Part shown: positions 25,260-55,701 of the stretch, in pieces
Layout: every line of letters begins with the position of its first letter
Position numbering within the stretch: the stretch's first letter is position 1
Origin: an uncultured Pseudomonadota bacterium
GTDB taxonomy: Bacteria > Babelota > Babeliae > Babelales > RVW-14
DNA length: 64,000 nucleotides
Assembly (NCBI GenBank): GCA_964519365.1
Contig: CAZFHP010000001.1
Coordinates: 3-64,002, forward strand
Reading direction: 5' to 3'
The notes under the pieces: model-generated
What the model saw: the letters and a program-made list of their open reading frames with translations, nothing else
What the model was told of the DNA's origin: nothing
Databases searched by the model: none
Program-made: the position numbers and the translations under genes

Positions 25260-26186
25260 CTATCGCTCTAAAAGCCGTCGTTTTAACCCACGATACTTCC
25301 ATCTAACCTGATCAAGAAGCTTTTTATACACAGACTTGCCTTTCAAGACACTGGGATATCGTTTTATAACGTCTTCATGCAAGCGTAAGAACTTTTCACC
25401 CGTTTTTGCCTGATCAGCATAAAACTTTTCTATAATCTTGCCCAAATTGTTTTCTTGAGGATCATAAAAAATATCTTCCCATTTTTTGAGATAATTTTTG
25501 AGATCATGCTTAAACTTTGCATAATTCGTCTTACGAACGTTTACATTTGCATGCGGATAATGCTCAACATACGAATCAGGCGAATCGATAACTTCATAGC
25601 CCTTATCCCACATTTTTAAACATAAATCACCGTCACCGTTATAAAAAAAGAACGTTTGCTCGTCAATATAACCAACATCTTCTAATGCTCGCTTAAGATA
25701 CATGCCATGGTTAACATACATTTTTTCACCAAGCGTACACCCAACATGATAAGACTTATCACATGACCAATCTCGAAAGTAAAACGCAACCGCTCCAACT
25801 TTCTTCCCATTATTCAAAGCACTTTCAAAACACGAATACCCATTAATAATCGCACCGGGAACAAGTAAGCAATCGTCACTTAACATACATACGTATTTAC
25901 CCTGAGATATTTTAAAGCCCAAATTCATAAAATATCCCCACGACCGTCGCTCGATTTTTTTGCCAAGCCAATCCCCCCGATTATGCTGCACAATCGTAAT
26001 AATATCTTTTTGTGCGCGTAACCATTCAAGCGAACCGTCGTCAGAACCCCCATCTATTACGATTATTTCATAGCATAAGTTAAAACGAGAATTCTGAAAC
26101 TCTTCGCGAATACTATTAACCGTCAGGGGCAAAAACTTTATGCGATTATATGATCCTAAAACAACAGAGATTATGGGCTTGTTCAT
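25260..26186 (-). CDS. glycosyltransferase family 2 (GT-A)
   Basis: ISVVLGSYNR...VIDGGSDDGS...MLSDDC. About 70% identical by eye to 32117..33052. Confidence 0.75.
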   Translation of the reverse strand: MNKPIISVVLGSYNRIKFLPLTVNSIREEFQNSRFNLCYEIIVIDGGSDDGSLEWLRAQKDIITIVQHNRGDWLGKKIERRSWGYFMNLGFKISQGKYVCMLSDDCLLVPGAIINGYSCFESALNNGKKVGAVAFYFRDWSCDKSYHVGCTLGEKMYVNHGMYLKRALEDVGYIDEQTFFFYNGDGDLCLKMWDKGYEVIDSPDSYVEHYPHANVNVRKTNYAKFKHDLKNYLKKWEDIFYDPQENNLGKIIEKFYADQAKTGEKFLRLHEDVIKRYPSVLKGKSVYKKLLDQVRWKYRGLKRRLLER

Positions 26187-27334
26187 GCAATCTCTTTTAT
26201 CGCATTTACGACCAGTTCTATTTGTTCCTGCGTTATGCCAAGGCCACTTGGAATATAAAAACCTCGTTGTGCTAATTTTTCAGCGACAGGATAACGTTCT
26301 CCAAAAAAAAGTCCCAGTTTATAAAAAACAGGCTGCTTGTGCATACACCAAAAAAATGGGCGTGTTTCTATGTTTTTCGCTGCAAGTTTTTTCATAATCA
26401 CCTGAGCGTCATACTCTACCGAATCTTTTAATACAAGTCCATATACCCAATAAATATTTTCAGCATAATCTGTTCGAGCTAGTGGCCTTTGAAAAATATC
26501 GATATCCTGCAAGGCTACATCGTACGATTTACCAATAACACGTTTTTTTTCAATAAAAGAATCTAAGCGTTCCAACTGGGCCAGCCCAACGGCTGCTTGC
26601 AAATTTGTCATGCGCGCACTAAAACCAAGGCCTTCATGGACAAAACGTTGCTCCGGCTTAAAACACAAATTTCTCAGCATATTACTTCGTCTTGCTAGGT
26701 TTTCGTCATCTGTTAGAATCATGCCACCTTCACCTGTTGTCACATGTTTGTTTGGATAAAAACTTACGACACTTATATCACCAAAACTCCCACATGGCTT
26801 ATCTTTATACGTTTGCCCAATAACTTCAGCCGCATCTTCAATTATTTTTAAATCATATTTTTGAGCAAGCTCAAGAATTGGATCCATGTCGACAGGAAGC
26901 CCATACGTATGCACAACCATGATAGCTTTTGTTTGCATAGTAATTTTGCGCTCTATTTGACTAACATCAATGTTCCATGTTTCTGGGTCGCTATCAACTA
27001 ATACAGGTATTGCTCCAGACCTAACAATAGCGTTAGCACATGAAATAATAGCAAATGTCGGCATAATAACTTCGTCACCAACACCAATTTCCAACGCTTG
27101 TACAGCAATATCAAGCGCCACAGACCCACTAGAAACAGCAATCGCATGCTTTCGCAAAGCTCTTTGCGCAAAAGCTTCTTCAAACTTTTTTACAAACGGC
27201 CCATCAGACGATATCCACCCAGTATCTATGCATTCAGCTAAATATTTTTTTTCGTTACCTGTTAACAGTGGTTCATTAACAGGAACAGAAATAACTTTAT
27301 CTTCTTGTACGCTAGTATTTTCAATAGTTTCCAT
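26183..27334 (-). CDS. DegT/DnrJ/EryC1/StrS family sugar aminotransferase
   Basis: GNEKKYL...C...GWISS.GPFV..FE..FA. Also DAAE, SFYPNKHVTTGEGGM with the PLP lysine context, and FCMHKQP. Confidence 0.8.
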   Translation of the reverse strand: METIENTSVQEDKVISVPVNEPLLTGNEKKYLAECIDTGWISSDGPFVKKFEEAFAQRALRKHAIAVSSGSVALDIAVQALEIGVGDEVIMPTFAIISCANAIVRSGAIPVLVDSDPETWNIDVSQIERKITMQTKAIMVVHTYGLPVDMDPILELAQKYDLKIIEDAAEVIGQTYKDKPCGSFGDISVVSFYPNKHVTTGEGGMILTDDENLARRSNMLRNLCFKPEQRFVHEGLGFSARMTNLQAAVGLAQLERLDSFIEKKRVIGKSYDVALQDIDIFQRPLARTDYAENIYWVYGLVLKDSVEYDAQVIMKKLAAKNIETRPFFWCMHKQPVFYKLGLFFGERYPVAEKLAQRGFYIPSGLGITQEQIELVVNAIKEIA

Positions 27335-27366
27335 AATTTCTTCTCACTTTCTAACAAACGTCATGC

Positions 27367-27795
27367 CTACTTGATAACAACTTGTGATCTTTTTATTCCA
27401 TCAAAACGCGTCTTATCGCTTACCCCAACATAAGGCCCTTGCTTTACTTCTATTATCTCAACGTCTTCTAGTACCTCAAATCCATGGCCACCACGCCCAA
27501 GTAACATAACATCTCCTGCATGCAAAATTTTACTTTCAAGATATTTCTTATGTTCATCGTAAAGATCTACCTGTATTTTTCCCTTTTTGATAAACAAAAC
27601 TTCTTCCGTATAAACGACTTCGCGCAAAACATGATTATGCACATGTGCCGGAATACTATCTCCCGCTGGGCGTTTTATGCAACCCAACTGCTGAGAAAAA
27701 TTATCTGGTGTAAAAAACGAAGTTCCATCTTGAGAATAATTTCGTCTCAAAATTACAGCCATTATTTTTTCGTTATGATACACACGTTCAATCAC
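27367..27795 (-). CDS. cupin-fold sugar-nucleotide-modifying protein (WxcM/FdtA- or WbuC-like)
   Basis: 142-aa cupin (PAHVHNH...EEVLFIKKGKIQVDLYD...GGHGFEVLEDVEIIEVKQGPY) translationally coupled to the aminotransferase. Confidence 0.4.
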   Translation of the reverse strand: MIERVYHNEKIMAVILRRNYSQDGTSFFTPDNFSQQLGCIKRPAGDSIPAHVHNHVLREVVYTEEVLFIKKGKIQVDLYDEHKKYLESKILHAGDVMLLGRGGHGFEVLEDVEIIEVKQGPYVGVSDKTRFDGIKRSQVVIK

Positions 27796-29024
27796 ATAGA
27801 CTCTCTTATTTTATTCAAAAACACGTTATACGATTTTTCATACGAGCATAGCATGTTATAACGCTCTTTAATATTTTTTACATACCAATCATAATTATTT
27901 ATAACGTTAACGACTTTACCATGCAAATCACTAACCCCCGCCTGTTCTCCAAAGCCATTATTTTCAGTAAAATCAGAAAGGCCTATCAAGCCTTTTGAAA
28001 CAAGAACAGGTTTGTTGTGCGATAAAAATTTATGATACTTTCCCGAAGCCATTCCCATATACGTTATATTGTCATCACGTTCTGCTTGATAAAAACAAAG
28101 CCCTATATCGATACACGACATGAGATAATTAATGTCACTATTACACAAAACGTCTTCTTTGATATAAACATGCTTCGAATCAAAAGATTTCAAAAGTCGT
28201 TTTATGTCATACATAAAACCATCGCCAGACCACCCAGAAAACACCCACAGATAATCTTTTAACAAAACAATCTTTTCAAATAATTCTAACGAAAGAACCC
28301 AGCGCTCCAAACTCCCGATATACAAAATCTTGGGCTTTCGAGATTTAAAAATCGCATCAAAGCCCGAAACAACCGAATGTTTGTTTTCTAACTCTTGGAT
28401 ATACGCATTAGGCACCGTAAAAGCATGAATAGCTTTATTCCCATAATATTTAAAGAAAAGCTTGAGTCTATCGTGATCTTGAATAATCAGATAATCTATC
28501 GCGTTAAGCGCTCGAGCAAATAATACTCGTTTCAAGTCTATCCCATATACAAGTCTATAAAAAAAAGATCGTACAATTCGTTTTACGTATTTACTTTTAT
28601 TTTCAAGTAAAAGCGTTCCCAAAAAATTATTTCGCACGAACACTAAAAATACTTTCGTCACGAACTTTTCACACACGTTTTTTTTTGCTTGCCGCTTATA
28701 ATCTGAAAGCTCCAAACTGTGAAAAATAATCACAGGTTTAAGTTTACATAAAAAAGAAACCATACCCAAAAGCTCCATATCTGATGGCTCGTAAGCAATA
28801 ACATAATCGTAATTATTAATATCTCGATATAAAATCGATATATTTGAAAAAAAATCCTGCGTAAGCTTAATATGCCCAGAGACATAAACACCAAAAGAAA
28901 CAAGAGCCCCTGCTGTTGCTATATGATTTACAAGGCCTTTAGACGCTAATAAATATAGTGCGTTATAAACAGATGGAAATGTATCCAATCTTCGCGTAGA
29001 ACCTAAAATATGCAAAATCTTCAC
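27792..29024 (-). CDS. hypothetical protein, possible GT-B-type glycosyltransferase
   Basis: 410-aa ORF within the glycan cluster. MKILHILGS... is a GT-B-like N-terminus. I recognise no clear catalytic motif. Confidence 0.3.
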   Translation of the reverse strand: MKILHILGSTRRLDTFPSVYNALYLLASKGLVNHIATAGALVSFGVYVSGHIKLTQDFFSNISILYRDINNYDYVIAYEPSDMELLGMVSFLCKLKPVIIFHSLELSDYKRQAKKNVCEKFVTKVFLVFVRNNFLGTLLLENKSKYVKRIVRSFFYRLVYGIDLKRVLFARALNAIDYLIIQDHDRLKLFFKYYGNKAIHAFTVPNAYIQELENKHSVVSGFDAIFKSRKPKILYIGSLERWVLSLELFEKIVLLKDYLWVFSGWSGDGFMYDIKRLLKSFDSKHVYIKEDVLCNSDINYLMSCIDIGLCFYQAERDDNITYMGMASGKYHKFLSHNKPVLVSKGLIGLSDFTENNGFGEQAGVSDLHGKVVNVINNYDWYVKNIKERYNMLCSYEKSYNVFLNKIRESM

Positions 29025-29053
29025 TATTACTCGTCACACGTTAATCTATAATT

Positions 29054-29947
29054 TTATTTTTCGTTCACAGGTTTTCTTACAACACACGCATGCATGTGAT
29101 TATGCAAAAACGGAACTTTCTTAAATAATTTATTAAGAAGCACTCCCGACTTACTAACTTTAAATTCCCAATTCTTAAAAGAAACAAACGGCCTAAAAAC
29201 TGAGTGGAACAACCCATCAATATGAGCAATGGGAGTACTCTCAATAATATCAAACCCAGCCCGCTTACAAACAGTCTCAAATTGTTTCGGCGTAAAACGA
29301 TACTCAAAAAAATTACCCCGCTGAGGATCAATGTAATACGAAAAGCGCTTTCTATTCCATTTTCTATGTGGCTTGCTAAAAGCCTTTCGAACAAGATTAT
29401 TTTTTCTTGGGTCAATAAAGCTTAATGCATAACTTATTCTGCGCAAAAGATTAAAACTAGGCACCGTAATAATTCCAATCCCGCCTGGCTTTAAAACATT
29501 ATAAAGAGCATTCAGCGGGGCATCAGGCCCATCCGGAAAATGTTCAATAAGGCCATACGACAAAACCATATCAAACGAATTCAAGGGATATTTCATGTTT
29601 AAAATATCACCGTGCTCTATATTTAAGTCAGGAAACGATTTATTAAGCCAGGCAACAGAATCTTGATTTATCTCTATCCCATAGATATTTTTTAAACCTT
29701 TGTCATAAAGATATTTGACAACACGCCCAAGACCACAACCTGTTTCAAGAATTTTCCAATTTTTATTTTTCAAATATTTTAACGTAATGGCAACATCGTC
29801 GGTTCGCTCACAACTCTTTAATAATTGATCAAACTCATTATGTTGCCAAGAAAAAACGATACTCTTTTTATTCTCATTGTCCTTTTGCTCTTGCATCGCT
29901 ACAAACCCTTTTATAAATTTACACCAATATTTTTCCCAAAAAAGCAC
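29054..29947 (-). CDS. class I SAM-dependent methyltransferase
   Basis: Motif I ILETGCGLGRVVKYL, plus FDMVLSYGLIEHF and LKPGG. The likelier start is MQEQKD at 29896. Confidence 0.7.
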   Translation of the reverse strand: MLFWEKYWCKFIKGFVAMQEQKDNENKKSIVFSWQHNEFDQLLKSCERTDDVAITLKYLKNKNWKILETGCGLGRVVKYLYDKGLKNIYGIEINQDSVAWLNKSFPDLNIEHGDILNMKYPLNSFDMVLSYGLIEHFPDGPDAPLNALYNVLKPGGIGIITVPSFNLLRRISYALSFIDPRKNNLVRKAFSKPHRKWNRKRFSYYIDPQRGNFFEYRFTPKQFETVCKRAGFDIIESTPIAHIDGLFHSVFRPFVSFKNWEFKVSKSGVLLNKLFKKVPFLHNHMHACVVRKPVNEK

Positions 29948-31094
29948 TCATGTCAGATGAAAACTTTTCTCGTGAAAATTCTTTTAACGCAAAACTCTGA
30001 CAGGAAGCTATCTGATCTTCAAGCTCATCTTTTGATAACGACATAGCCTGATTCACTACATTTTCAATTTCACTTGTTGCACATGTTTCTAGATACAGCC
30101 CAGCATTATTCGGCAACGTAATCCCATTATTTCTACTTATGATTGGAAATAGTCCTAACTGCAAACACGTAACAACAGCTGGCGATATTCCTTCACTACA
30201 CGATGGGGCAATAAAACAAAAGACCCGCTTAATAATTTCTATAAATTTATCGCTACTTGGGAACAAACAACCATAATATCTAATATTAGAACAGTGAAAA
30301 AGTTCTTGTTCGTAAATTTTTAGAAAATCTCGTTCAGATTCTAGCCGTCCTATTACGTTTAAAACAAGATTTTTATTTTTTTTAAAAACATCGAGAACTA
30401 AATCTAATCCCTTGTGAACAGCCCCACCACCATAGTGCCACAAAAATTCTCGCGTTTCTGGAACATAATCGTCTGAACTTTTAATATATTTTAATCGTGA
30501 CGCAGAAACAGTAACTGTCGAAATCTTTTTTCTATATTCTTCTGGATACGTACTTAACGTATGCTTATTGCCAATCAAAGAACAGGTGTCAGCTAAGCGT
30601 AACGATCGCTCAGCCCAATCTAAATAATCAACAATTCGCTTAGGGGTATAAAATGCTTTTGTTCGCTGTTCTAACGCATGAACCCGTTTTAACTCAGCGT
30701 CCCGCGAAAACCATACATGACTTGTAGTCAAATGCAAAAGCTTTTTTGTTTCTTTTCCAACAACAGGAGTAAGTCTCTGCAAATTAACGTGTATGTCAAA
30801 CACAATATCATACGAACATTTAGGCCAAAAGCGCCTATTGTTCCAGTTTATGCAATCAACAATAAAACCATATGAATTAAAAATTCTGACAATTTCGCGA
30901 CTCTCCCAAAGGTTACTGTGAGCATTAAATCGAATGTCATTGGGTTTCCATAAAACAGCCTGCTCTAAGTAGCTAAAAAGAACTCTCCCTATCGCCTTTT
31001 TATGTTTAGGGTAAACCGTAATCGCACGCTCCCAACTATTCTGATCCCTACCTAAAATTTTTTTGGCTACTTTTTTTAACAACTGAATACTCAC
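29919..31094 (-). CDS. putative GT-B glycosyltransferase (GT4-like C-terminal half)
   Basis: C-terminal APSCSEGISPAVVTCLQLGLFPIISRNNG resembles the E-x7-E region of GT4 enzymes. The N-terminal half is unassigned. Confidence 0.4.
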   Translation of the reverse strand: MSIQLLKKVAKKILGRDQNSWERAITVYPKHKKAIGRVLFSYLEQAVLWKPNDIRFNAHSNLWESREIVRIFNSYGFIVDCINWNNRRFWPKCSYDIVFDIHVNLQRLTPVVGKETKKLLHLTTSHVWFSRDAELKRVHALEQRTKAFYTPKRIVDYLDWAERSLRLADTCSLIGNKHTLSTYPEEYRKKISTVTVSASRLKYIKSSDDYVPETREFLWHYGGGAVHKGLDLVLDVFKKNKNLVLNVIGRLESERDFLKIYEQELFHCSNIRYYGCLFPSSDKFIEIIKRVFCFIAPSCSEGISPAVVTCLQLGLFPIISRNNGITLPNNAGLYLETCATSEIENVVNQAMSLSKDELEDQIASCQSFALKEFSREKFSSDMSAFLGKILV

Positions 31095-31106: not shown

Positions 31107-32120
31107 TTATGATCTTGTTCTTTGCATAATCTTTTCTTTGAAAACACGATATTTTTGCTTTAAAAACGCTTGTGCTTTTTGTGATGGAATACAAAACTTT
31201 AATGCTTTTTTCACCACACTTACACCCATACTAAAAATAGAACGTTTTGGCATTACCGTTAAAATTACATCATAAAGCTTTTTGTCTAACGATTTATCCC
31301 ATTGTATATTGTTAGGGGCAACAAGCAGATCGCTTTCTATCGCTCGAACAGGCATCTGGTGAAAAATACTTTTAGTACCATTACCATGAGCCCCCGAAAA
31401 TCCTATATTTGATACAAGATTAACAACAGAAACAATAGAAAAACCCTGCTGTTTTATACACGCATAAGCCCACTGATAATCCCATGTATCAACATCTTTC
31501 TTGCATACTTTTTTTAAATTATCTACCCAAAACTCTCTAACCCGTCGATCCTTTAAAAAAACTTCTAAGCTTCCTAAAACTTCTTTCGAATCCCATTTTT
31601 CTATGTCATATTCAAAAAACTTCCATGCGCGTCGCCACGTCGCCCACCCCCAAATAGAATAATATTTCGAAAAGAAGAAACTTTCTTTTCTGTTCACTTT
31701 GTTAAAAAAATAACTCGTTCCGCTAATCATCATAACGTTTTCGTGATCTTTATAGTCTTTGAGTAATCGCTGACAAAAATAAAAAAAAGAATCGTCTGGC
31801 ACACAATCATCTTCCAAGATTATGCCTTCTTCAACATGATCAAAAAACCAGTCAATAGCCGAACTTATCGCTTTACCACATCCCAAATTTTCATCTCGAA
31901 ATAACGTTTTAACTTCACAGTCCCAATCAACAGCCTGTATAATATTTCTGGCTGCGTTACATTCTTTTTCTTCCCCATCAACCCCTACCCGCGGCCCATC
32001 AGCAGCTACAAATAAATATTTCGGCTTTACTTTTTTTATCTTTTGAAAAACTCTTTGAGCATGTTCTGAACGATTAAAAATGATAAATAAAACAGGTGTA
32101 AAAAAAGCATTACTGCTCAT
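31107..32120 (-). CDS. GT-A glycosyltransferase with GnT-I (GT13)-like motif
   Basis: PVLFIIFNRSEHAQRVF...LFVAADGPR...GCGKAISSAIDWFF..VEEGIILEDDCVPDDSFFYF resembles the EDD region of GlcNAc-transferase I-type enzymes. An ATGA overlap at 32117-32120 joins it to the upstream gene. Confidence 0.5.
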   Translation of the reverse strand: MSSNAFFTPVLFIIFNRSEHAQRVFQKIKKVKPKYLFVAADGPRVGVDGEEKECNAARNIIQAVDWDCEVKTLFRDENLGCGKAISSAIDWFFDHVEEGIILEDDCVPDDSFFYFCQRLLKDYKDHENVMMISGTSYFFNKVNRKESFFFSKYYSIWGWATWRRAWKFFEYDIEKWDSKEVLGSLEVFLKDRRVREFWVDNLKKVCKKDVDTWDYQWAYACIKQQGFSIVSVVNLVSNIGFSGAHGNGTKSIFHQMPVRAIESDLLVAPNNIQWDKSLDKKLYDVILTVMPKRSIFSMGVSVVKKALKFCIPSQKAQAFLKQKYRVFKEKIMQRTRS

Positions 32121-33052
32121 AACCAAAACCCTTCTTTTATTTTTTTGCGAACAGCACGCACTCTCCATTTTATAGCCCCATATAACTCTTGATGCCATAC
32201 TGGCCCTTGAAACAATTTTGGATGTGTCTTTAAAACGACTTCATGCTCCTGTTTAAATCGATTACACGTCATAGCTTTATCAAAAAATTTCTTCTTTTTA
32301 AGATCTCCTAGATTGCGTGTCGTAAGTTCAGGTATTTTTTTTGTCCACCGAGCCAAAAATTTCTTGTAATCATGATCAGTGTCTTTTTTGTTCGATTTAC
32401 GCACATTCACATTCGCATGGGGATAATGCTCAAGATACGAATCTGGCGAATCTAGTATTTCATATCCTGCATCCCACAATCTAAAACACAAGTCTATATC
32501 TGCAAAATAAAAGTTATACGTATCTTCGTCTATATAATTTACTTCTTGTAAGGCTGATCTTAAATACATGCCGTGATTTACATACATGATCTTTTTAGCG
32601 GGCATGCCAACTTTATAAGCCTCTTCGAGAAAAGACTCTCGCCAATAAAAAGCAAGCGCCCCTACTTTCTTTTTTTCTTTTAACTTTTGCTCAAATAAAT
32701 CATACCCATTTTTTATAGCCCCAGGCACAAGAATACAATCGTCGCTTACCATACAAATATATTTACCTTGGGCCATTTTAAACACCAAGTTCATGAAGTA
32801 CCCCCATGACTTTCTTTCGATCTCTTTCCCAAGCCAATCGCCACGATTATGCTGCACAACCGTAATAATATCTTTCTGCTCGCAAAGCCATTCTAGCGAT
32901 CCATCATCAGAACCCCCATCGACGACTATAATTTCATAGTTTATTTTTGGTAAAAAATTATAAAACTCTTCACGAATACTATTTATAGCTAACGGCAAAA
33001 ATTTTATACGATTATATGAACCAAGAACTACAGAAATTATAGGATTCTTCAT
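32117..33052 (-). CDS. glycosyltransferase family 2 (GT-A), paralog of 25260..26186
   Basis: ISVVLGSYNRIKFLPLAINSIREEF...VVDGGSDDGS...MVSDDC. Confidence 0.75.
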   Translation of the reverse strand: MKNPIISVVLGSYNRIKFLPLAINSIREEFYNFLPKINYEIIVVDGGSDDGSLEWLCEQKDIITVVQHNRGDWLGKEIERKSWGYFMNLVFKMAQGKYICMVSDDCILVPGAIKNGYDLFEQKLKEKKKVGALAFYWRESFLEEAYKVGMPAKKIMYVNHGMYLRSALQEVNYIDEDTYNFYFADIDLCFRLWDAGYEILDSPDSYLEHYPHANVNVRKSNKKDTDHDYKKFLARWTKKIPELTTRNLGDLKKKKFFDKAMTCNRFKQEHEVVLKTHPKLFQGPVWHQELYGAIKWRVRAVRKKIKEGFWL

Positions 33053-46527: not shown

Positions 46528-47115
46528 TTATTTAACCATCGCAACCATAATATTGTCTTTATACTCAGCCTGATCACCACCATCTACATAGGTAATCGTA
46601 TAATCTGTGTTAATTTCTAAAACTTTTGCTTTTATTTGCTCTTTCGTCAAGTAATCAAATAAAACAGTCCCACAACAATGCATGTCGTCTATCAAAATCG
46701 TATGCGTTTTTATCGGATGCTTCTTTATCTGTTCTAACTCTGCTAACAATGGCGTATTATTACCATGCTCTTGAGGCATGCCAGCATGCCCATCAAGCCA
46801 AAATGTTATCGGCTTATCAATCTCTTTAATAACGTCCCAAAGGATAATTCCAGAGTCCCCTTGCCAAATACGTACGTTATCATAATTTCGAAACATCTTT
46901 CGCGCATTGTTTACAAAATCATCTAGAATCTCAACAGAATGAATATCTGCAAAGCCAGCCCTTAAAGCAAATAAAATTCCATTACCTTTTTGCGTTCCAG
47001 TTTCAACAAAAACATCGTTCAAAAATCGTTCAAATCCTTCTGGAGCCATATTTGAATGCAACAATGAAAAAAACATTAAAGCAAACACTAAAAAAAATTT
47101 TCTTGTTTTCAACAC
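46528..47115 (-). CDS. putative SAM-dependent methyltransferase-like protein with signal peptide
   Basis: FVETGTQKGNGILFALRAGFADIHSVEI...FWLDGH...TILIDDMH resembles small class I MTase-fold proteins found in LPS loci. N-terminal part is FFLVFALMFFSLL. Confidence 0.4.
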   Translation of the reverse strand: MLKTRKFFLVFALMFFSLLHSNMAPEGFERFLNDVFVETGTQKGNGILFALRAGFADIHSVEILDDFVNNARKMFRNYDNVRIWQGDSGIILWDVIKEIDKPITFWLDGHAGMPQEHGNNTPLLAELEQIKKHPIKTHTILIDDMHCCGTVLFDYLTKEQIKAKVLEINTDYTITYVDGGDQAEYKDNIMVAMVK

Positions 47116-48106: not shown

Positions 48107-49221
48107 TACGCATCTACCTTTTTCTTTGCGCTAACACGCTCTTTAGACAAAAACTTTTTTAAGTTCTTCGAATGATACCATTGATAAGTTTTTTCTATCC
48201 CTTCTTGTAAAGAAATAAATTTTGATAAACCCATATCTCTAAGCCGCGAAATATCAAGCAGTTTTTTCGGAGTTCCATCGGGTTTTGAACTGTCATAACA
48301 AATCTCGCCATCAAACCCAACGATATTTTTTATGAGACCTGCAAGATCACGAATCGTAATATCTGTACCTATGCCAATATTAATAAACTCTCCAAGCTCG
48401 TTTGCATTATAATTTTTCATGAGAAAGAACAGCGTTTGAGCGAGGTCGTCGACATATAAAAATTCTCGATACGGTGTACCTGAGCCCCAAAGCGTGATAC
48501 TTTTTTTTGTTATCCCAATTTTTTCAAGCACCGAAGCAAGTGCTTTTGTGTCGTTTTTTTCAAGAATCTTATCTAGTGCATGCCCAACGGGATAACGAGT
48601 TAAATCACACATAATCGCGTCAAAGCTTTCTTCCCGAAGTAATTTTGCTAAGTAAAATTTTCGAATTAAAGCAGGTAAAACATGTGCCGTTTCAAGATTA
48701 AAATTATCGCCCGGGCCGTAAAGATTTGTTGGCATGACAGACATAAAATTCGTTTGATATTGCTCGTTATAATAACTACACAACTTAATTGCTGCTATTT
48801 TTGCAAGCGCATACGGCTCATTTGTTGGCTCAAGAAGGCCTGTGAGTAAGTATTCTTCTTTTAACGGCTGAGGGGCTAACTTAGGATAAATACATGAAGA
48901 CCCAAGATTAAGAAGCTTTTTGACGCCAAATTTATATGCAGCATGAATAATATTCGTAGCAATCATAAGATTGTCATAAATAAACTCTGCTTTATACGTG
49001 TTATTTGCAAGAATCCCGCCAACTTTTGCTGCCGCTAAAAAAACATATTCTGGCTGCTCTTGTTTAAAAAAATTTTCGACAGCTGCTTGATTTCGCAAGT
49101 CGAGCTCTGAAAACGTTCGCGTGATTATATTCGTATATCCAGCCCTTTTTAGCATGCGCATAATAGCTGAACCAACAAGCCCCGCATGTCCCGCTACATA
49201 TATTTTTGAAGACGTTTTCAT
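48106..49221 (-). CDS. fcl: GDP-L-fucose synthase (GDP-4-keto-6-deoxy-D-mannose 3,5-epimerase/4-reductase)
   Basis: IYVAGHAGLVGSAI.R.L...FLAAAKVGGI.AN...AEFIYDNL.I..N.I.AA...GVKKLLNLGSSCIYPK...EPTNEPYA.AK...WGSGTPYREFLYVDDLA. Confidence 0.85.
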   Translation of the reverse strand: MKTSSKIYVAGHAGLVGSAIMRMLKRAGYTNIITRTFSELDLRNQAAVENFFKQEQPEYVFLAAAKVGGILANNTYKAEFIYDNLMIATNIIHAAYKFGVKKLLNLGSSCIYPKLAPQPLKEEYLLTGLLEPTNEPYALAKIAAIKLCSYYNEQYQTNFMSVMPTNLYGPGDNFNLETAHVLPALIRKFYLAKLLREESFDAIMCDLTRYPVGHALDKILEKNDTKALASVLEKIGITKKSITLWGSGTPYREFLYVDDLAQTLFFLMKNYNANELGEFINIGIGTDITIRDLAGLIKNIVGFDGEICYDSSKPDGTPKKLLDISRLRDMGLSKFISLQEGIEKTYQWYHSKNLKKFLSKERVSAKKKVDA

Positions 49222-49236: not shown

Positions 49237-50454
49237 TTACTCACCCATAATATCATGCTGTGCATAGGTAAAATTCTTGTCTTTGCAAACTTTTATTCCA
49301 TCACCGATAGGCTTCATACTATGAAGCTTAAAGTCATAGTCGACCATGATTTTTACAAGCTCATCAAACGTAACTCGCGGCTGCCATGATAATTCTTCCT
49401 GTGCTTTACGTATATCTGCTTGTAAAAACGCTACTTCTGTGGGCCTAAAATATTTTGGATTAATTCCAACCAACGTTTGCCCAACACGGATTAGGTGCTC
49501 CCATCTATCGCTTATTTTTTTTACGACGCCTCGCTCGTTTACCCCTGCTCCTATCCATTCTAATTCAACGCCAACATATGCAAATGCTTTATCAACAAAT
49601 TCACGAACCGTATGGCTTTCTCCCGTTCCTACGACATAATCTCGAGGCGTATCTTGCTGCAGCATAAGCCACATCATTTCAACATATTCTGGTGCGAAAC
49701 CCCAATCACGTCTTGCATCTAAATTACCCAAGTATAATTTTTTTTGTTTGCCCGATAAAATCGCAGCAACCGCTCGTGTAATTTTCCGCGTTACAAACGT
49801 TGGACCACGTCTAGGGCTCTCGTGATTAAATAAAATCCCGTTACATGCAAAAATATCATACGACTCTCGATAATTAATCGTTAGCCAGTAGGCATATAAT
49901 TTTGCAACAGCATACGGACTACGGGGATAAAACGACGTTTGTTCGTTTTGTGGGGCCGGAGAAGAACCAAAGAGTTCAGAAGTAGATGCTTGATATAGTT
50001 TCGTTTTAATCCCGCTACGTTTTATTGCATCAAGCAAACGCGTCACGCCAATGCCTGTTACATTTGCAGTATACTCAGGCATATCAAAAGAAACTTTAAC
50101 ATGCGACTGAGCCCCTAAGTTATAAATCTCGTCTGGTTTTATGTTCCAGATAATATCACTTAAGATCCCAGGGTCAGACAAATCTCCATAATGCAAAAAT
50201 AATTTTGTTTCTTGCTCTAGAGGATCTATATAAAGATGGTCGATGCGTTTGGTATTAAAAGACGAACTACGACGAATAACCCCATGAACTTCATATCCCT
50301 TAGACAAAAGAAACTCTGCGAGGTAAGAACCATCTTGCCCTGTTATTCCCGTAATCAAAGCTTTCTTAGAAATAATATTTTTAGCAGAAACAAAACCAAA
50401 AAAAATAATTATCCCAAAAAGAGCATATCGTGCTATACGAACTATTTTAATCAT
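49237..50454 (-). CDS. gmd: GDP-mannose 4,6-dehydratase with an extra N-terminal hydrophobic segment
   Basis: [42 protein letters not shown]... is preceded by [31 protein letters not shown], which the neighbouring copy lacks. Confidence 0.85.
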
Positions 50455-50473
50455 CTTTAATCATCACTTTCTC

Positions 50474-51607
50474 TTAACGAAACTGGGCAACATTATGATC
50501 TGTATACGTAAAGTTTTTGTTCTTACAAACGTTTATCCCATGACCAATAGGTTTTATGTTAGAAAATTTAAGATCATAATCGACCATTATTTTTACAAGT
50601 TCATCAAATGTAACGCGTGGCTGCCACTGTAATTCTTTTTGCGCTTTGCTTATATCTGCATGCAAGTGTTCTACTTCTGTTGGTCTAAAATATTTTGGAT
50701 CAACAGAAACAAGTGTTTGCCCGACGGTTACAATATTTGCCCACGTATTATTTATACTTTTCACGACACCATATTCATTTACACCCGTACCTACCCACTC
50801 AAGCTCTAAACCCGTATATGCAAATGCTTTATCAACAAATTCACGAACCGCATGACTTTCTCCCGTTCCAACAGCATAATCTCGAGCACTGTCATGCTGT
50901 AACATAAGCCACATCATTTCAACATACTCTGGGGCAAAACCCCAATCTCGCTTGGCATTTAAATTCCCCAAATATAACTTCTCTTGTTTGCCGGACAAAA
51001 TTGCAGCGACAGCTCGTGTAATTTTTCTGGTTACAAACGTTGCACCCCGTCTCGGGCTTTCATGATTAAACAAAATCCCGTTACATGCAAAAAGATCATA
51101 CGATTCACGATAATTAACGGTCATCCAGTAGGCATATAACTTTGCTGCAGCATAGGGGCTACGTGGATAAAACGGCGTTTGTTCGTTTTGCGGCGCAGGC
51201 GAAGAACCATAGAGCTCTGACGACGATGCCTGGTAAAACTTCGTTTTAATCCCACTACGCTTAATAGCATCAAGCAAACGAGTCACACCAATGCCCGTTA
51301 CGTTTCCTGTATATTCAGGCATATCAAAAGAAACTTTGACATGCGACTGGGCTCCTAAGTTATAAATCTCATCTGGTTTTATGTTCCAGATAATATCACT
51401 TAAGATCCCAGGATCCGACAAATCGCCGTAATGCAAAAATAATTTTGTTTTTTGTTCTAGTGGGTCAATATATAAGTGATCAATGCGCTGGGTATTAAAA
51501 GACGAGCTTCGACGAATTATTCCGTGAACCTCATATCCCTTGGACAAAAGAAACTCAGCAAGATACGATCCATCTTGTCCTGTTATTCCTGTGATTAATG
51601 CTTTCAT
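50474..51607 (-). CDS. gmd: GDP-mannose 4,6-dehydratase (second tandem copy)
   Basis: [21 protein letters not shown].... High identity to 49237..50454 across the whole enzyme. The track ORF extends to 51628. Confidence 0.9.
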
Positions 51608-51640
51608 CTTTCCCCTTTGTGTTATCAAAAATCTTGTTGA

Positions 51641-53386
51641 TCATATCGCAATATTTTGGGCTTGTCTATTTCTACAATGGCTCACCGAAACATCGATTGT
51701 AAAGCCATCTTCTATCTTGTATACTCTGTCACAACGCTCTATTGTCGTAAGCCTGTGAGCAATCACAATAAGCGTTTTATCTTGACTCACATCATAAATT
51801 TCATCCATGATTTTACTTTCTGTCTCATTGTCAAGCGCAGACGTTGCCTCGTCAAGCACAAGAACATCAGGATCCGCATAAAGCGCCCGCGCGATAGCAA
51901 CACGCTGTTTGTGCCCCCCACTAAGCTTACTTCCCCCCTCGCCCGTTTTTGTTTCCAAACCATCTTTAGACATAAGAAAATCATAAATATGCGCTTTCTT
52001 TAAAGCCATAATAACTTTTTCTTCATCATATTCACGCCCACAAACAATATTTTCAGCAATTGTCCCATCAAATAAATAAATTGTTTGCGGAATATACCCA
52101 ATTTTTCGTCGCCATGATTTTAGGTTTTGCATTGTAAGAAGCTGTTTGTCTATAAAAATTTGGCCTTTTTGTGGATGAAACAACCCCATAACAATATCTA
52201 CTATTGTGCTTTTGCCAGCACCACTTTCTCCGACAAAACCAACTCGTTGCCCTTTGGGAATAACAAGATTTGCATTAGACAAGACGCTATCTTTTTCTGT
52301 ATAAGCAAACGCTATATTTTTTAATTCTATCGTCTTGTCAAATATAATATGATCGTTACCAAGCTGCTCATAATCATGAAGCAAAAACTTATAAAGCGGC
52401 TGCAGAGCATGTTTATTAAACATAATCTGATTATATCCCATGACCATTTTATTAAGCGACGGCATAAAACGATAAAATGCTAACGCGTACATAGAAACTG
52501 TCGGCAAAACAAACGACGCATTGTTATACATAAAAACAACATAGACTATTATGCTCAACAAGATAAAAAAACCTATTGTTTCAAGAACATATCTAGGCAA
52601 CGCCTGCCAAACTGCGTTTACTGTATTTGCTTGAGCTAAACCAAAACGCGCAGATGCATAACGATCAAAAATCGGCTTTGGGTTGGCAACTAGCTTTAAG
52701 AACTTATAATTTCCAAACGACTCCCCATACGTTTTGCCTGCGCGCAATGAAAATTTTTGACGACGTTTGCCAGCCCGAGCAATACGATTAGAAAAGGTCT
52801 TAACGACAAAAAATACTTTTATTGAAAGCAAAAATGACAACACTATGGTCATCTTCCAGTTGACATAAAAAAGCATACAATAGATACATAGAACAGTAAA
52901 AAGCTCCGAAAAAATAGTTAATAGTGCTGATATAACTTGAGTTGCATTTGTTGTATATCCAGAAATTGCTTCACTTATTTTAGCAGAATTTTTTTGAACA
53001 AGGTCTTTATACTTAAATTCTAAATAAATTTTAAAAAGACGTCTTGAAAAAAAATACTCACGCATATAAGCAAACTTATTCATGTAATAAATATGAACCG
53101 TACATAAAATGGCTCTAAAAAAATAAAATACTATAAGTCCAAGCCCCATAAGTACAACAAAATCACTCGGTTTAGCAAAGCCTAGTTTATAATAGAGAGA
53201 GCCTAAGTACTTATTTCTAAGAACGGCTTCAAAATTTGTTGCAATACCAATAAAGACCATAATTGCAGAAATACTCACCGTTTCTATCGCTGAAACAATA
53301 ACCGATGCAAGCAAAAGAATCAGTATTCTTTTTTTATCTTGACGATTAAAAAGTCTTCTGAGCAACGCAACGAGTGATAATTCCAT
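51641..53386 (-). CDS. ABC transporter, fused permease/ATP-binding protein (MsbA/PglK-type exporter)
   Basis: Six N-terminal TM segments. Walker A GESGAGKST, signature LSGGHKQRVAIARAL, Walker B VLVLDEATSALD. Confidence 0.85.
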   Translation of the reverse strand: MELSLVALLRRLFNRQDKKRILILLLASVIVSAIETVSISAIMVFIGIATNFEAVLRNKYLGSLYYKLGFAKPSDFVVLMGLGLIVFYFFRAILCTVHIYYMNKFAYMREYFFSRRLFKIYLEFKYKDLVQKNSAKISEAISGYTTNATQVISALLTIFSELFTVLCIYCMLFYVNWKMTIVLSFLLSIKVFFVVKTFSNRIARAGKRRQKFSLRAGKTYGESFGNYKFLKLVANPKPIFDRYASARFGLAQANTVNAVWQALPRYVLETIGFFILLSIIVYVVFMYNNASFVLPTVSMYALAFYRFMPSLNKMVMGYNQIMFNKHALQPLYKFLLHDYEQLGNDHIIFDKTIELKNIAFAYTEKDSVLSNANLVIPKGQRVGFVGESGAGKSTIVDIVMGLFHPQKGQIFIDKQLLTMQNLKSWRRKIGYIPQTIYLFDGTIAENIVCGREYDEEKVIMALKKAHIYDFLMSKDGLETKTGEGGSKLSGGHKQRVAIARALYADPDVLVLDEATSALDNETESKIMDEIYDVSQDKTLIVIAHRLTTIERCDRVYKIEDGFTIDVSVSHCRNRQAQNIAI

Positions 53387-53500
53387 AAACTATTTTCTCC
53401 TTTTCAAAATAGTTATTTTCGCTATGCTAGTTTTAAAATTATTAGGAGCATAACGTGAACTTGCAATAGTTGCAAAAAATAATCCTGAAAGAGAGAGGCT

Positions 53501-54505
53501 ATGATTGAGAATGTAATTAAAAATAAAAAGATTCTTGTTACTGGCGGAGCAGGGTTTCTTGGAAGCCACTTATGTCAAAAACTTTTAGAGCTTAATAATC
53601 GCGTTATCGCACTTGATAATTTATACACAGGTCGCATGGCCAATCTTGCACACTTACTTGAACATGAAAACTTTCATGTGATCAAACATGATGTTATTAA
53701 TCCCATAAATATTGATATCGATTTAATCTTCAATCTTGCCTGTCCCGCTTCTCCTCCACATTATCAAAAAGACCCGCTATTTACCACAAAAACAAGTGTT
53801 TTGGGTATTCTAAACATACTTGAACTAGCACAAAAAAATAATGCTCGTATTTTACAAGCTTCTACAAGCGAAGTCTATGGGGACCCTGAAAAACACCCTC
53901 AGCCAGAAAGTTATAAGGGCAGCGTTAATCCTATTGGCATTAGAGCATGTTATGACGAAGGCAAACGATGTGCCGAATCACTTATGTTTGACCACAAACG
54001 TATGTACGAAACTGATATTAAAATTGTTCGCATCTTTAATACATACGGCCCACACATGGACCCAAACGACGGTCGTGTCGTTAGTAACTTTATTATTCAA
54101 GCATTACAAAACCAGCCTATAACTATGTACGGCGATGGGAACCAAACACGTTCTTTTTGTTACGTAGATGACCTGATTAACGGGATTGTCTCTATGATGG
54201 GTTCAAAAAAATCTTTTACTGGTCCCGTTAATTTAGGTAACCCAATAGAATTTAACTTACTCGAACTCGCACAACTTATTTTAGATCTTACAGATAGCAA
54301 GTCACAGATTATTTTTAAGCCATTACCTGAAGACGACCCAACACGCAGGCAACCAGATATTAGCTTGGCTAAAGAAAAATTAAATTGGGAGCCTAAAATT
54401 AATTTAAAAACTGGGTTAGAAAAAACAATCCCGTATTTTGAAAAAGTCCTGAGGACATCGTGTTTAGAACATAAAACATATGATGCAAAACAAACAATAC
54501 TATAA
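53501..54505 (+). CDS. UDP-glucuronate decarboxylase (UDP-xylose synthase)
   Basis: [16 protein letters not shown]...N.VIALDN.YTGR..N...[18 protein letters not shown]...[32 protein letters not shown]...IFNTYGP.M...[12 protein letters not shown]. Confidence 0.85.
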
Positions 54506-54513
54506 GCAAGCCT

Positions 54514-55701
54514 ATGAAAGTAGCAATCGCCGCCGGTGGACGGTTTCACGCGTTTCATCTTGCACATCAATTAGCCAAACGAAATAGCCTTAAAAGACTT
54601 TTTACGTTTTGCTACACAAAACAAGACAAAAGTTATGTCACTCCAGCACTTGTAACAAACGATAGATTTTGTGGGACACTTAACTATGCCTATTCTAAGC
54701 TACGCCTATACAAAGTACTCCCCCCATCTAAGTTTAATATCTTTAAAGATAATTGCTTTGATAATTTTGTACGCAAAGAAATTAAAAACTTGGGAACACT
54801 AGACATCTTTGTTGGCTGGGGACATTATGTAAAAAACAGCATTCCTGAGATAAAAAAAACAGGCGCAAAACTTATCATCGAATCTGGATCATGTCACATT
54901 AAAACACAACAAGAGCTCTTACAAGAAGAATACAAAAAATGGGAATTACACTATCCCCCAATCTCACAAAAAAATATCGACAAAATGGTCACAGAATATC
55001 AAGCAGCTGATTATATTATGACACTCTCAGAATTTTCTCGCCAAAGTTTTATTGACCAAGGTATAAAATCTGAAAAACTCTTAAAAGTCCCATGCGGATG
55101 CGACGTCGAGTATTTTTTAAAAACACACGACACAGAAAATAATCTTCACAAACAAAACATTAAACAAAAAAAATTTACGGTAATATTCGTCGGGCTTTTA
55201 AGCCTGCGCAAAGGCATACAGTATCTCTTACAAGCTTGGAACAAGCTTAATCTCCCAGAGCACAATACGCAATTACTTCTTGTTGGCACGTTACATAAAG
55301 ATCTTAAAACTGTCTTAAGCAAAATTAAAATCAAAAATAACGTCGTTTTTTTTGGGTCTACAAACAGGCAAACACTTCGAAAGCTTTATCACGATGCATC
55401 TGTGTTTGTTTTGCCATCAGTCGAAGATGGCTTTGGAATGGTCATGGGCGAAGCAATGGCAAGTAGGTTGCCCGTTATTTGCTCAAGTCATACCGGAGGC
55501 ACAGAGATAATTAAAAATGGGCAAGAAGGCTTTATCGTCCCAGCTTATGGTAGTAAAGCGCTGGCTGAAAAAATTTCATGGTGCTATGAACATCCTGAAA
55601 AATCCCAAGCTATGGGAGCCCTTGGGCAACAAAAAATTTTAAATTTTTCTTGGGATATTTATGGGCAACAAGTATATGAAACATATCAAAAGCTTGTCTG
55701 A
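54514..55701 (+). CDS. glycosyltransferase family 4 (GT-B)
   Basis: C-terminal FVLPSVEDGFGMVMGEAMASRLPVICSSHTGGTEII (E-x7-E region). Confidence 0.75.
   Translation: MKVAIAAGGRFHAFHLAHQLAKRNSLKRLFTFCYTKQDKSYVTPALVTNDRFCGTLNYAYSKLRLYKVLPPSKFNIFKDNCFDNFVRKEIKNLGTLDIFVGWGHYVKNSIPEIKKTGAKLIIESGSCHIKTQQELLQEEYKKWELHYPPISQKNIDKMVTEYQAADYIMTLSEFSRQSFIDQGIKSEKLLKVPCGCDVEYFLKTHDTENNLHKQNIKQKKFTVIFVGLLSLRKGIQYLLQAWNKLNLPEHNTQLLLVGTLHKDLKTVLSKIKIKNNVVFFGSTNRQTLRKLYHDASVFVLPSVEDGFGMVMGEAMASRLPVICSSHTGGTEIIKNGQEGFIVPAYGSKALAEKISWCYEHPEKSQAMGALGQQKILNFSWDIYGQQVYETYQKLV

Follow-up and report, generated by a model that had tools for sequence, protein, structure and literature searches.

Between positions 25260 and 55701 of the 64,000-nucleotide stretch analysed here (the window), genes for nonulosonic acid, fucose and xylose precursors are grouped with glycosyltransferases, methyltransferases and an ATP-binding cassette (ABC) protein, which raises the question of whether they build one glycan and, if so, how it would be assembled and exported. 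The gene content argues, with a probability of roughly 60%, for a single biosynthetic locus for a complex, non-polymerised heteroglycan, which would be lipid-linked, flipped by the ABC protein and attached to an acceptor. A first-pass annotation of this DNA had proposed an elaborate and probably undescribed glycan; the pseudaminic acid (Pse)-type, fucose, xylose and methyl gene content supports the elaborate part, but the combination is not unprecedented, being known from Tannerella forsythia, while chlorovirus glycans join fucose, xylose and methylation. Cluster proteins were compared with the Pfam and NCBIfam profile libraries (the latter with curated equivalog cut-offs) and with structure-linked sequences in PDB, and the scores bear out the pathway assignments.

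Organization and relatives of the locus

The segment contains 28 open reading frames (ORFs) at a coding density of 97.5%, 24 of them on the minus strand (25260-33955 and 36297-53386); the first pass had put about 28 on that strand. Its other layout claims hold: two plus-strand genes interrupt the run at exactly 34527-36307, and two more (UXS and a GT4 gene, 53501-55701) are divergent from the ABC gene at the far end. Intergenic spacing ranges from -82 to +36 bp, except for a 571-bp gap (33956-34526), which holds no ORF longer than 45 aa and no Rfam family, and the 114-bp divergent region (53387-53500). Around the plus-strand pair, a search for an inversion signature found short AT-rich chance repeats only, and a promoter and terminator consensus scan of 24500-44000 gave the same counts as shuffled sequence. 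The GC content of the cluster (0.31-0.39) is that of its flanks. The window corresponds to JGI metagenome contig Ga0115649_1001955. The same locus is carried by a second JGI sample and an ENA assembly (99.99% identical over 14.7 kb), and a Logan assembly matches it at 100% identity over 3.9 kb; given these near-identical copies, the locus is not an assembly artefact.

The genes are not scattered in relatives. Core order is kept in a metagenome-assembled genome (MAG; GCA_043822925.1, here L027) with a compact locus, in which GT4 and UXS diverge from the series ABC-Gmd-Fcl-PseB-PseC-PseF-methyltransferase-GNAT-fusion-HAD-PseI-Maf-GT2. Most shared proteins are 57-78% identical to those of the window (UXS 70%, ABC 61%, Gmd 74%, Fcl 65%, PseB 78%, PseC 67%, fusion 58%, HAD 57%, PseI 67%), while the methyltransferase, GNAT and Maf-like proteins range from 36 to 46% (Maf-like 36%). 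The window adds to this set a gmd duplication, the block 43638-48106, the plus-strand pair and most of 25260-32198. Order is partly kept in an 11-kb contig of 32% GC (JBQVMC010000064.1, here L019), which carries, in this order, the ABC gene, homologues of the 31107-32198 and 29054-29947 genes, fcl, a homologue of the 29919-31094 gene, and gmd. This contig is binned as Methanosarcinaceae; its cluster is of bacterial type and 39-63% identical to the window genes, pointing to a misbinned contig or a transfer.

Fucose, xylose and amino-sugar genes

The genes for nucleotide sugars other than the nonulosonic acids are:

49237..50454, minus strand: Gmd copy 1, GDP-mannose 4,6-dehydratase (NCBIfam gmd TIGR01472, 552 bits; cut-off 415)
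50474..51628, minus strand: Gmd copy 2 (NCBIfam gmd TIGR01472, 556 bits; cut-off 415)
48106..49221, minus strand: Fcl, GDP-L-fucose synthase (NCBIfam NF047922, 454 bits; cut-off 500; next model 72)
53501..54505, plus strand: UXS, UDP-glucuronate decarboxylase or UDP-xylose synthase (human UXS1, 4gll and 2b69, 380 bits, E = 1e-112)
26183..27334, minus strand: second DegT-family sugar aminotransferase (Pfam DegT, 375 bits; NCBIfam LegC family, 329 bits; cut-off 420)
27367..27795, minus strand: small cupin, weakly WbuC-like (NCBIfam WbuC, 22.8 bits; cut-off 42)

The GDP-fucose and UDP-xylose pathways recognised in the first pass both find support. The two Gmd copies, in tandem and 85% identical to each other, score above the cut-off. 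The Fcl match falls slightly below its own and comes in two stretches, on either side of a ~45-aa insertion that follows the 'HVLPALIRKFYLAK' helix; this insertion is common to Fcl of L027 (4503-5600) and absent from a 50%-identical homologue in another genome, L048 (8930-9952). UXS is similar to human UXS1 over its full length, and the next-best PDB family reaches 138 bits.

The first pass also described a DegT/cupin amino-sugar pair. The aminotransferase is supported, with the LegC family as its best, sub-threshold model and 31% identity to the window PseC, but the cupin match is weak; the cupin gene overlaps the adjoining 27792-29024 gene by 4 bp. LegC-type enzymes use GDP-linked 4-keto sugars as substrates, so the second DegT enzyme may aminate the Gmd product.

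A nonulosonic acid module without PseG

Nine genes relate to nonulosonic acid synthesis, including an extended short-chain dehydrogenase/reductase (SDR) fused to an ATP-grasp ligase and an S-adenosylmethionine (SAM)-dependent methyltransferase:

42636..43613, minus strand: PseB, inverting UDP-GlcNAc 4,6-dehydratase (NCBIfam TIGR03589, 511 bits; cut-off 407.75)
41494..42672, minus strand: PseC aminotransferase (NCBIfam TIGR03588, 515 bits; cut-off 423.5)
40528..41457, minus strand: class I SAM methyltransferase (Pfam Methyltransf_23, 50.6 bits)
39946..40524, minus strand: GNAT N-acetyltransferase, weakly PseH-like (Pfam Acetyltransf_4, 57.5 bits)
38025..39953, minus strand: fusion of an epimerase/dehydratase-type extended SDR and an ATP-grasp ligase (Pfam Epimerase, PylC-like_N, ATP-grasp_3)
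37343..38044, minus strand: HAD-family hydrolase of the conserved module (Pfam HAD; NCBIfam CTE7 and YjjG-like, sub-threshold)
36297..37355, minus strand: PseI, pseudaminic acid synthase (NCBIfam TIGR03586, 495.7 bits; cut-off 340.25)
35567..36307, plus strand: CMP-sugar cytidylyltransferase, the sole one in the cluster (Pfam CTP_transf_3)
34527..35558, plus strand: divergent NeuB-family nonulosonic acid synthase (NCBIfam NeuB 234 bits and PseI 178 bits, both below cut-off)

The Pse-type pathway claimed in the first pass is carried by PseB, PseC and PseI, all above their cut-offs, and is weakened at the other steps. The GNAT protein scores 25.8 bits on the PseH model TIGR03585 (cut-off 93.1), the cytidylyltransferase 163 bits on the PseF model TIGR03584 (cut-off 205.7), and no PseG or Glyco_tran_28_C model matched any of the 28 cluster proteins at E <=1e-3.

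The GNAT, fusion, HAD and PseI genes form a module that was found in three inspected genomes (L026, L027 and L028), beside a PseC-type aminotransferase and a 4,6-dehydratase-type SDR, and PseF and a methyltransferase usually accompany it. The HAD gene adjoins the fusion gene in all three, and PseG was likewise not found in their homologous modules. The fusion protein (642 aa) is 54-60% identical to proteins of Paenibacillus, Aneurinibacillus, Bacteroidota, Nitrospirae, Thermodesulfovibrionales and others, and the methyltransferase is 45% identical to the L027 gene in the same position. As judged from these sequence comparisons, the PseG-less module is widespread and conserved, occurring in Firmicutes, Nitrospirota-like MAGs and the present lineage; a literature search on the chemistry of such modules and on ATP-grasp enzymes in Pse pathways returned nothing directly relevant. 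The fusion protein probably tailors the Pse precursor, and the GNAT protein, the HAD hydrolase and the methyltransferase could take part, for example in N-acylation with an amino or hydroxy acid. The missing PseG step could be covered by these tailoring proteins or by a gene elsewhere.

The synthase of the plus-strand pair is equidistant from NeuB, PseI and SpsE in PDB (~100-110 bits), and its orthologues (58-61% identity) lie directly 3' of PseB-like and PseC-like genes in two metagenome contigs, L030 and L029. The cytidylyltransferase is 36% identical to the partner gene 3' of the synthase orthologue in L030. PseF of L027, encoded between PseC and the methyltransferase, has no BLAST match among the window proteins (E <1e-5), so the plus-strand cytidylyltransferase is the only one present. 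By homology, the synthase represents a second Pse-type clade, a divergent one, and the cytidylyltransferase is its putative activating enzyme.

A GT114 homologue and a predicted xylosyl-fucose element

One transferase allows a linkage to be predicted:

45571..46497, minus strand: GT114 homologue of A075L from the chlorovirus PBCV-1 (PDB 8q8i, 8avq and 8asa, E = 7e-31; Pfam RXYLT1_C, 33.8 bits)

A075L, which defines CAZy family GT114, is a UDP-Xyl:fucoside beta-1,4-xylosyltransferase that adds xylose (Xyl) to O4 of L-fucose (Fuc), with Asp73 as the catalytic base and Arg158 and Arg208 as phosphate-binding residues (PMC11571054). The window protein is 30% identical to it over 207 aa. Its residues D105, R183 and R229 align with Asp73, Arg158 and Arg208, and Asn202 and Gly203 are also kept; the acceptor-contact residues Ser72, Thr112 and Asn153 differ. 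Since this homologue shares the cluster with UXS, Gmd and Fcl, the glycan is predicted to have a Xyl-beta-1,4-Fuc element, the specificity for UDP-Xyl and O4 of L-Fuc being read from that genomic context only. It is thus a bacterial GT114 member in a context that predicts its reaction.

Homology of its cluster neighbours, namely the 640-aa, 195-aa and DUF6492 proteins, to chlorovirus A064R, A061L and other genes flanking a075l was considered and rejected at the sequence level; BLASTP and phmmer --max against PBCV-1 and five related loci returned the A075L match only.

Other transferases and methyltransferases

The remaining transferase- and methyltransferase-like genes of the cluster are:

25260..26186, minus strand: GT2 glycosyltransferase (Pfam Glycos_transf_2, 46.6 bits)
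32117..33052, minus strand: GT2 glycosyltransferase (Pfam Glycos_transf_2, 50.7 bits)
54514..55701, plus strand: GT4 glycosyltransferase (Pfam Glycos_transf_1, 127.7 bits)
27792..29024, minus strand: divergent GT-B (GT4-like) glycosyltransferase, assigned through homologues; no Pfam match of its own
29919..31094, minus strand: GT-B (GT1/GT4-like) glycosyltransferase (Pfam Glycos_transf_1, 24.8 bits; below cut-off 26.4)
31107..32198, minus strand: unknown family, possibly GT-A ('EDD', a DXD-like motif, by eye only)
33080..33955, minus strand: Maf/DUF115 (MptE-like) protein (Pfam MptE-like PF01973, 28.4 bits; below cut-off 34.6)
43638..45560, minus strand: two-domain protein with DUF6492 as its C-terminal half (Pfam DUF6492, 27.1 bits)
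47126..48106, minus strand: DUF6492 protein with an N-terminal membrane anchor, putative GT-A-like transferase (Pfam DUF6492, 33.4 bits)
46528..47115, minus strand: 195-aa protein of unknown family, methyltransferase-like by eye only; no Pfam, NCBIfam or PDB match
29054..29947, minus strand: class I SAM methyltransferase, candidate sugar O-methylase (Pfam Methyltransf_11, 63.5 bits)

About ten transferase-like genes can be counted, in line with the at least ten of different folds given by the first pass, but family-level support extends to five of the ten: both GT2 proteins, which are 58% identical paralogues, the GT4 protein, the GT114 homologue and, through its homologues, the GT4-like protein at 27792-29024. 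For this last protein 258 homologue clusters were found among 1.84 billion proteins, and its aligned homologues match Glycos_transf_1 in 22 of 60 cases and Glyco_transf_4 in 9 of 60. The other five are the GT1-like and Maf-like proteins, both sub-threshold, the two DUF6492 proteins, and the 31107-32198 protein with its by-eye motif.

The GT1-like protein has a homologue in L019 at 51% identity. The 31107-32198 gene probably starts near 32120 (337 aa, as in the JGI gene call); its product has no profile match in Pfam, NCBIfam or a relaxed Pfam scan and no meaningful PDB match, and a 39%-identical homologue adjoins the ABC gene in L019. The Maf-like protein is 291 aa long and has no PDB sequence match, and the L027 gene in the same position (36% identical) has a confident MptE-like match; the protein is a candidate nonulosonic acid transferase. 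In the 640-aa product of 43638-45560 the N-terminal domain belongs to no known family, and the protein is 64% identical to that of 47126-48106. The latter shows 'IDVVIPC' and 'DAD' motifs by eye; its AlphaFold2 (AF2) model, from a two-sequence alignment, had a pLDDT of 44 and was unusable. PDB sequence searches with both DUF6492 proteins and the 195-aa protein gave no meaningful match. Four methyltransferase-type genes had been proposed; two have profile support (29054-29947, with a 50%-identical homologue adjoining fcl in L019, and 40528-41457), and a third, the 195-aa protein, was recognised by eye only.

Export and assembly of the glycan

The cluster has one candidate exporter, made of a fused transmembrane domain (TMD) and nucleotide-binding domain (NBD):

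51641..53386, minus strand: PglK/Wzk-like ABC half-transporter, fused TMD and NBD (NCBIfam PglK, 537 bits; cut-off 1000)

The protein matches Pfam ABC_membrane and ABC_tran and scores 279 bits on the MsbA model against 537 on PglK. Among GTDB species representatives, its closest counterparts come from Helicobacter and Wolinella (42-48% identity, the best being Helicobacter at 48%), and a partial match of 56% lies on the 11-kb contig binned as Methanosarcinaceae. Adjacency of the ABC gene and gmd recurs in L019, L021, L022 and L027, including a termite-gut spirochaete and a Campylobacteraceae MAG. In Helicobacter pylori, Wzk, a PglK homologue, flips a fucosylated glycan linked to undecaprenyl pyrophosphate (Und-PP) (PMC2841628). 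Apart from the ABC protein, 25260-55701 encodes no polytopic membrane protein, and so no Wzx or Wzy candidate.

From the enzyme families assigned above we infer an assembly order, a lipid carrier and an acceptor as follows. The building blocks, made by cytoplasmic enzymes, would be GDP-Fuc, UDP-Xyl, an amino sugar and one or two Pse-type acids in CMP-activated form. On a polyprenyl-phosphate carrier at the inner membrane, some ten transferases together with two methyltransferases would then build a branched oligosaccharide, possibly with a terminal Pse-type residue. The PglK/Wzk-like protein would flip the finished lipid-linked oligosaccharide, and enzymes encoded outside the cluster would transfer the glycan to a protein or lipid acceptor.

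Several observations weigh against this scheme. An initiating phosphoglycosyltransferase, a ligase and an oligosaccharyltransferase were seen neither in the 30 kb nor elsewhere in the window, so that the lipid-linked route rests on the homology of the ABC protein, whose PglK score is itself well below the equivalog cut-off. The sub-threshold PseH and PseF scores, together with the lack of a PseG match, make the nonulosonic product uncertain. No UDP-glucose dehydrogenase (UDPG_MGDP_dh, Ugd) that would feed UXS was found among the window ORFs scanned; its UDP-glucuronate may come from an enzyme encoded elsewhere or be drawn from a host. A purely cytoplasmic assembly also fits poorly with the N-termini of one Gmd, the GT114 homologue, the DUF6492 pair and the 195-aa protein, all of which resemble signal peptides.

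Alternative readings of the locus

The most serious competitor, doubtful as it is, is a patchwork with at least two products. A core (UXS/GT4, ABC, Gmd, Fcl, the Pse module, the Maf-like gene and one GT2) would have received later additions for another glycan, namely 43638-48106 (DUF6492, GT114 homologue, 195-aa protein), the gmd duplicate, the plus-strand synthase pair and 25260-32198. L027 has the core only, L019 has homologues of the 31107, 29054 and 29919 genes with ABC, fcl and gmd but no Pse genes, two synthases face one cytidylyltransferase, and the signal-like N-termini are confined to the window-specific block. Yet all parts share one orientation and a single exporter, no gap between them exceeds 36 bp, and internal terminator or promoter signals do not rise above chance; the GT114 homologue, for its part, depends on the core pathways for Fuc and Xyl. 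An O-antigen or outer-core lipopolysaccharide (LPS) locus of the Helicobacter type, with Und-PP assembly, Wzk-like flipping and ligation to lipid A-core by a WaaL encoded elsewhere, is unlikely. Its attraction lies in the Helicobacter and Wolinella relatives of the ABC protein, in the flipping of fucosylated O-antigen by H. pylori Wzk (PMC2841628) and in the Gmd and Fcl genes beside the ABC gene. The H. pylori route serves protein glycosylation too (PMC9553153), however, so that the ABC homology does not discriminate; the window has no WaaL, lipid A or core genes, and five Babeliales genomes are without most LPS genes (PMC4776705), three markers placing the contig near that group.

Another reading is an island for flagellin or pilin glycosylation, in which Maf-type transferases put CMP-Pse directly on a cytoplasmic protein and the other genes decorate the sugar. 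It has in its favour the Maf/DUF115-like gene after the Pse module, an order shared with L027, and in Shewanella flagellin modification goes with ATP-grasp and methyltransferase genes (PMC3765264). It is nevertheless very improbable: the 64 kb hold no flagellar or pilin genes, the Maf-like protein has only 291 aa and a sub-threshold score, a flippase, the GDP-Fuc and UDP-Xyl pathways and about nine further transferases would be superfluous, and DUF115 transferases also act on lipid-assembled glycans (PMC5420450). Least probable of all is a group 2-like capsule or Wzx/Wzy-dependent polysaccharide locus. The mixture of nucleotide-sugar genes, transferases and an ABC protein gives the cluster the general look of such a locus, but its ABC protein, with TMD and NBD fused, belongs with the PglK/MsbA exporters and not with KpsM/KpsT, and there are no candidates for KpsC, S, D or E, Wza, Wzc, Wzx or Wzy, as the cluster encodes no other polytopic membrane protein. 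The KpsMT and Wzx/Wzy readings were rejected on these missing membrane proteins, which narrows the capsule, LPS or protein glycan offered by the first pass by making a KpsMT capsule and a classical Wzx/Wzy O-antigen unlikely.

Signal-peptide-like N-termini

Gmd copy 1 has an extension of ~24 aa resembling a signal peptide (about 50383-50454) directly before the Rossmann motif, which copy 2 does not have. Signal-peptide-like or anchor N-termini are also found on the GT114 homologue, both DUF6492 proteins, the 195-aa protein and three paralogues encoded at 5420-8887. The cluster genes concerned, gmd copy 1 included, are among the window additions relative to L027. In related Dependentiae-like genomes, extensions occur on Fcl and Gmd of L048 (8930-9952, 12372-13643) and on Gmd, Fcl and a third SDR of L052 (in order of position, 11135-12205, 13488-14489 and 14616-15743). 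Being conserved in related genomes, the extensions are not start-codon artefacts; their charge distribution is ambiguous. The enzymes that bear them would be either membrane-tethered or exported.

To our knowledge, Gmd and Fcl are elsewhere soluble, cytosolic enzymes, and signal-bearing forms would be unusual if exported. It seems quite unlikely, though, that Gmd copy 1, the GT114 homologue, the DUF6492 pair, the 195-aa protein and the three paralogues work outside the cytoplasm, in the periplasm or facing a host. If they did, an obligate intracellular bacterium would make GDP-fucose and build or remodel glycans in a compartment supplied with host nucleotide sugars, and glycosylation could proceed without lipid-linked flipping, possibly aimed at its own envelope or at host structures. 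In a milder version, a membrane-tethered GDP-fucose metabolon may operate at the cytoplasmic face.

Affiliation of the source organism

No rRNA or ribosomal protein genes were found in the window, and the affiliation was read from other proteins. The biotin carboxylase has no relative above 55% identity; among the top 120 matches, those named to a lineage are all Dependentiae, Babeliales or TM6 (46-53%), and three are labelled just 'bacterium'. Among GTDB genomes the ABC protein showed no close relative, and an exact look-up of TruB returned no record. A named Dependentiae MAG (L050), which also has Sel1 and ankyrin proteins, encodes a homologue of the AAA protein at 18693-20330 (39% identity over 515 residues). 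Because these relatives and those of the three paralogues described below point there, the uncultured marine source is probably a Dependentiae (TM6)-like, protist-dependent bacterium; a GC content of ~35% and a Sel1 protein fit TM6 (PMC4776705).

PMC4776705 describes Dependentiae as protist energy parasites whose genomes span 1.0-1.5 Mb, encode few biosynthetic pathways and specify a degenerated envelope. Should the contig be theirs, ~30 kb, or 2-3% of such a genome, would be devoted to one ornate glycan; the surface glycan would then probably be a main interface with the host, and the cluster a concrete locus for its study. A literature search on glycans of Dependentiae and Chromulinavorax found nothing directly relevant.

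Fucosyltransferase-fold paralogues outside the cluster

Further candidate transferases are encoded outside the cluster, three of them, a set of paralogues, at a distance of 17 kb:

5420..6574, minus strand: paralogue of a fucosyltransferase-fold family (AF2 and Foldseek)
6589..7719, minus strand: paralogue of the same family (AF2 and Foldseek)
7730..8887, minus strand: paralogue of the same family (AF2 and Foldseek)
8916..10352, plus strand: PMT_2-family GT-C membrane glycosyltransferase (Pfam PMT_2, 32.1 bits; cut-off 26.1)

The three tandem paralogues are 42-50% identical to one another and have no significant Pfam match; relaxed Pfam scans of the proteins lacking hits gave a sub-threshold GT11 lead for this family and nothing else. 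An AF2 model, built from an alignment of 63 family members, had a pLDDT of 92, and 40 of the 42 top Foldseek matches in PDB were POFUT1, AtFUT1, FUT8 and NodZ (probability 1.00, TM-score 0.32-0.49). The family alignment has an invariant 'VAVHIRKGGGFD' motif of the HxRxG GDP-binding type; together with GRLGD and FTDD, we take VAVHIRKGGGFD to resemble the motifs of GT11. The family has 143 matches, the named ones being from Babeliales, Dependentiae and Simkaniaceae bar one labelled only 'bacterium', so that its named members come almost only from protist-associated bacteria.

Homologues of the paralogues occur in L047-L052; they adjoin fcl and gmd in L048 and L052, and in L049, L051 and L052 they lie within large glycosyltransferase-rich islands. 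The three proteins are probably the likeliest consumers of the GDP-fucose made by the cluster, so that the limits of the glycan system probably lie outside 25260-55701. No GT-C enzyme other than the PMT_2 protein is encoded in the window. This protein, with ~9 hydrophobic segments, is divergent from the paralogues at a distance of 28 bp; it may serve the glycan system as a transferase on the periplasmic side.

In L051 and L052 (contigs of 1.73 and 1.48 Mb), the islands contain families that are more usual in eukaryotes and viruses (Nucleotid_trans PF03407, Glyco_transf_6), beside numerous proteins of no family. Among such genomes, ornate glycan loci may be a recurring trait that has so far gone undescribed. 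Just downstream of the paralogues, on the same strand, 4552-5448 encodes a 298-aa family-less protein with an N-terminal membrane segment, a Cys-rich C-terminus and a repeated 'VPT.LPACCVL'.

Flanking genes and other features of the window

To the left, the cluster is flanked by a DEAD-box helicase, a nucleotidyltransferase (NTase)/HEPN pair and a Nudix gene, and to the right by a secreted-type nuclease, an unknown protein, biotin carboxylase with biotin carboxyl carrier protein (BCCP), TruB, an RluD-type pseudouridine synthase and MgtE. The NTase/HEPN pair (22702-23449) is of the toxin-antitoxin kind, and several similar pairs (4324-5141, 19228-20048) interrupt the homologous Pse module in L028, a Thermodesulfovibrionales contig.

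At the left end of the window, 58-4616 holds duplicated cassettes with an EndoU nuclease domain (58-471 and 1117-1863, with related fragments at 3902-4616). Their 184-aa partners (493-1047 and 1887-2441) are 66% identical, and the array resembles a polymorphic toxin/immunity system. A Sel1-repeat protein of 428 aa is encoded at 2580-3866. Three further class I methyltransferases lie in 13938-18600, two of which (15826-17109 and 17695-18600) are 55%-identical paralogues with N-terminal hydrophobic segments. The AAA ATPase region (18693-21252) encodes a signal-like N-terminus on the ATPase, and a family-less gene adjoins it here and in L050.

Comparison with known systems

This is a poly- or oligosaccharide biosynthesis locus of a familiar type, since comparable loci abound and known families account for each of its parts; what it brings to light is the widespread PseG-less module, the GT114 homologue and the fucosyltransferase-fold family. 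In gene content it resembles the 27-kb cluster behind the protein O-glycan of T. forsythia, which contains Pse, Fuc, Xyl and two methylated sugars (PMC6120980). Both clusters are of similar size and have a CMP-Pse pathway, several glycosyltransferases, methyltransferases and a flippase; the T. forsythia cluster is polycistronic and goes with a glycan of these sugars, whereas the glycan is predicted from the genes here. DUF115-type transferases of T. forsythia add Pse or legionaminic acid (Leg) to the lipid-assembled O-glycan (PMC5420450, PMC6120980), a DUF115/Maf-type step on an undecaprenyl-phosphate-assembled glycan for which the Maf-like gene is the candidate here. The systems differ in the flippase (Wzx there, a PglK/Wzk-type ABC protein here), in the Pse genes (complete PseBCFHGI there; no PseG and a non-orthologous cytidylyltransferase here) and in the Fuc/Xyl core, encoded elsewhere in T. 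forsythia, whereas Gmd, Fcl and UXS are inside the present cluster. T. forsythia also belongs to another phylum, and no acceptor motif or glycoprotein is known here.

Compared with the canonical PseB-C-H-G-I-F pathway of Campylobacter and Helicobacter, the locus shares PseB, PseC and PseI above cut-offs, a GNAT protein and a cytidylyltransferase, but places the SDR/ATP-grasp fusion, HAD and methyltransferase genes among the PseC-PseI genes, without PseG, much as in Paenibacillus, Thermodesulfovibrionales and L027, and adds the second divergent synthase with its own cytidylyltransferase. For export, the closest ABC relatives (42-48%) are of the H. pylori Wzk/C. jejuni PglK kind, which flips an Und-PP-linked, non-Wzy glycan. 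Those systems have an initiating enzyme (WecA/PglC) and a transferase (WaaL/PglB), neither of which was seen here, and their glycans are without Pse or Xyl.

Chlorovirus N-glycans combine Fuc, Xyl and methylation (PMC9614988), and the A075L likeness covers an aligned catalytic region with the base and phosphate-binding Arg residues kept, next to genes for UDP-Xyl and GDP-Fuc supply in the same cluster. A075L is soluble, whereas the window protein has an extra signal-peptide-like N-terminus, and the neighbouring chlorovirus glycan genes (A064R, A061L and others) have no detectable homologue here. Taken by analogy, the closest counterparts of the locus would be the T. forsythia cluster for its content, the H. 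pylori Wzk route for its export and A075L for the xylosyl-fucose step.

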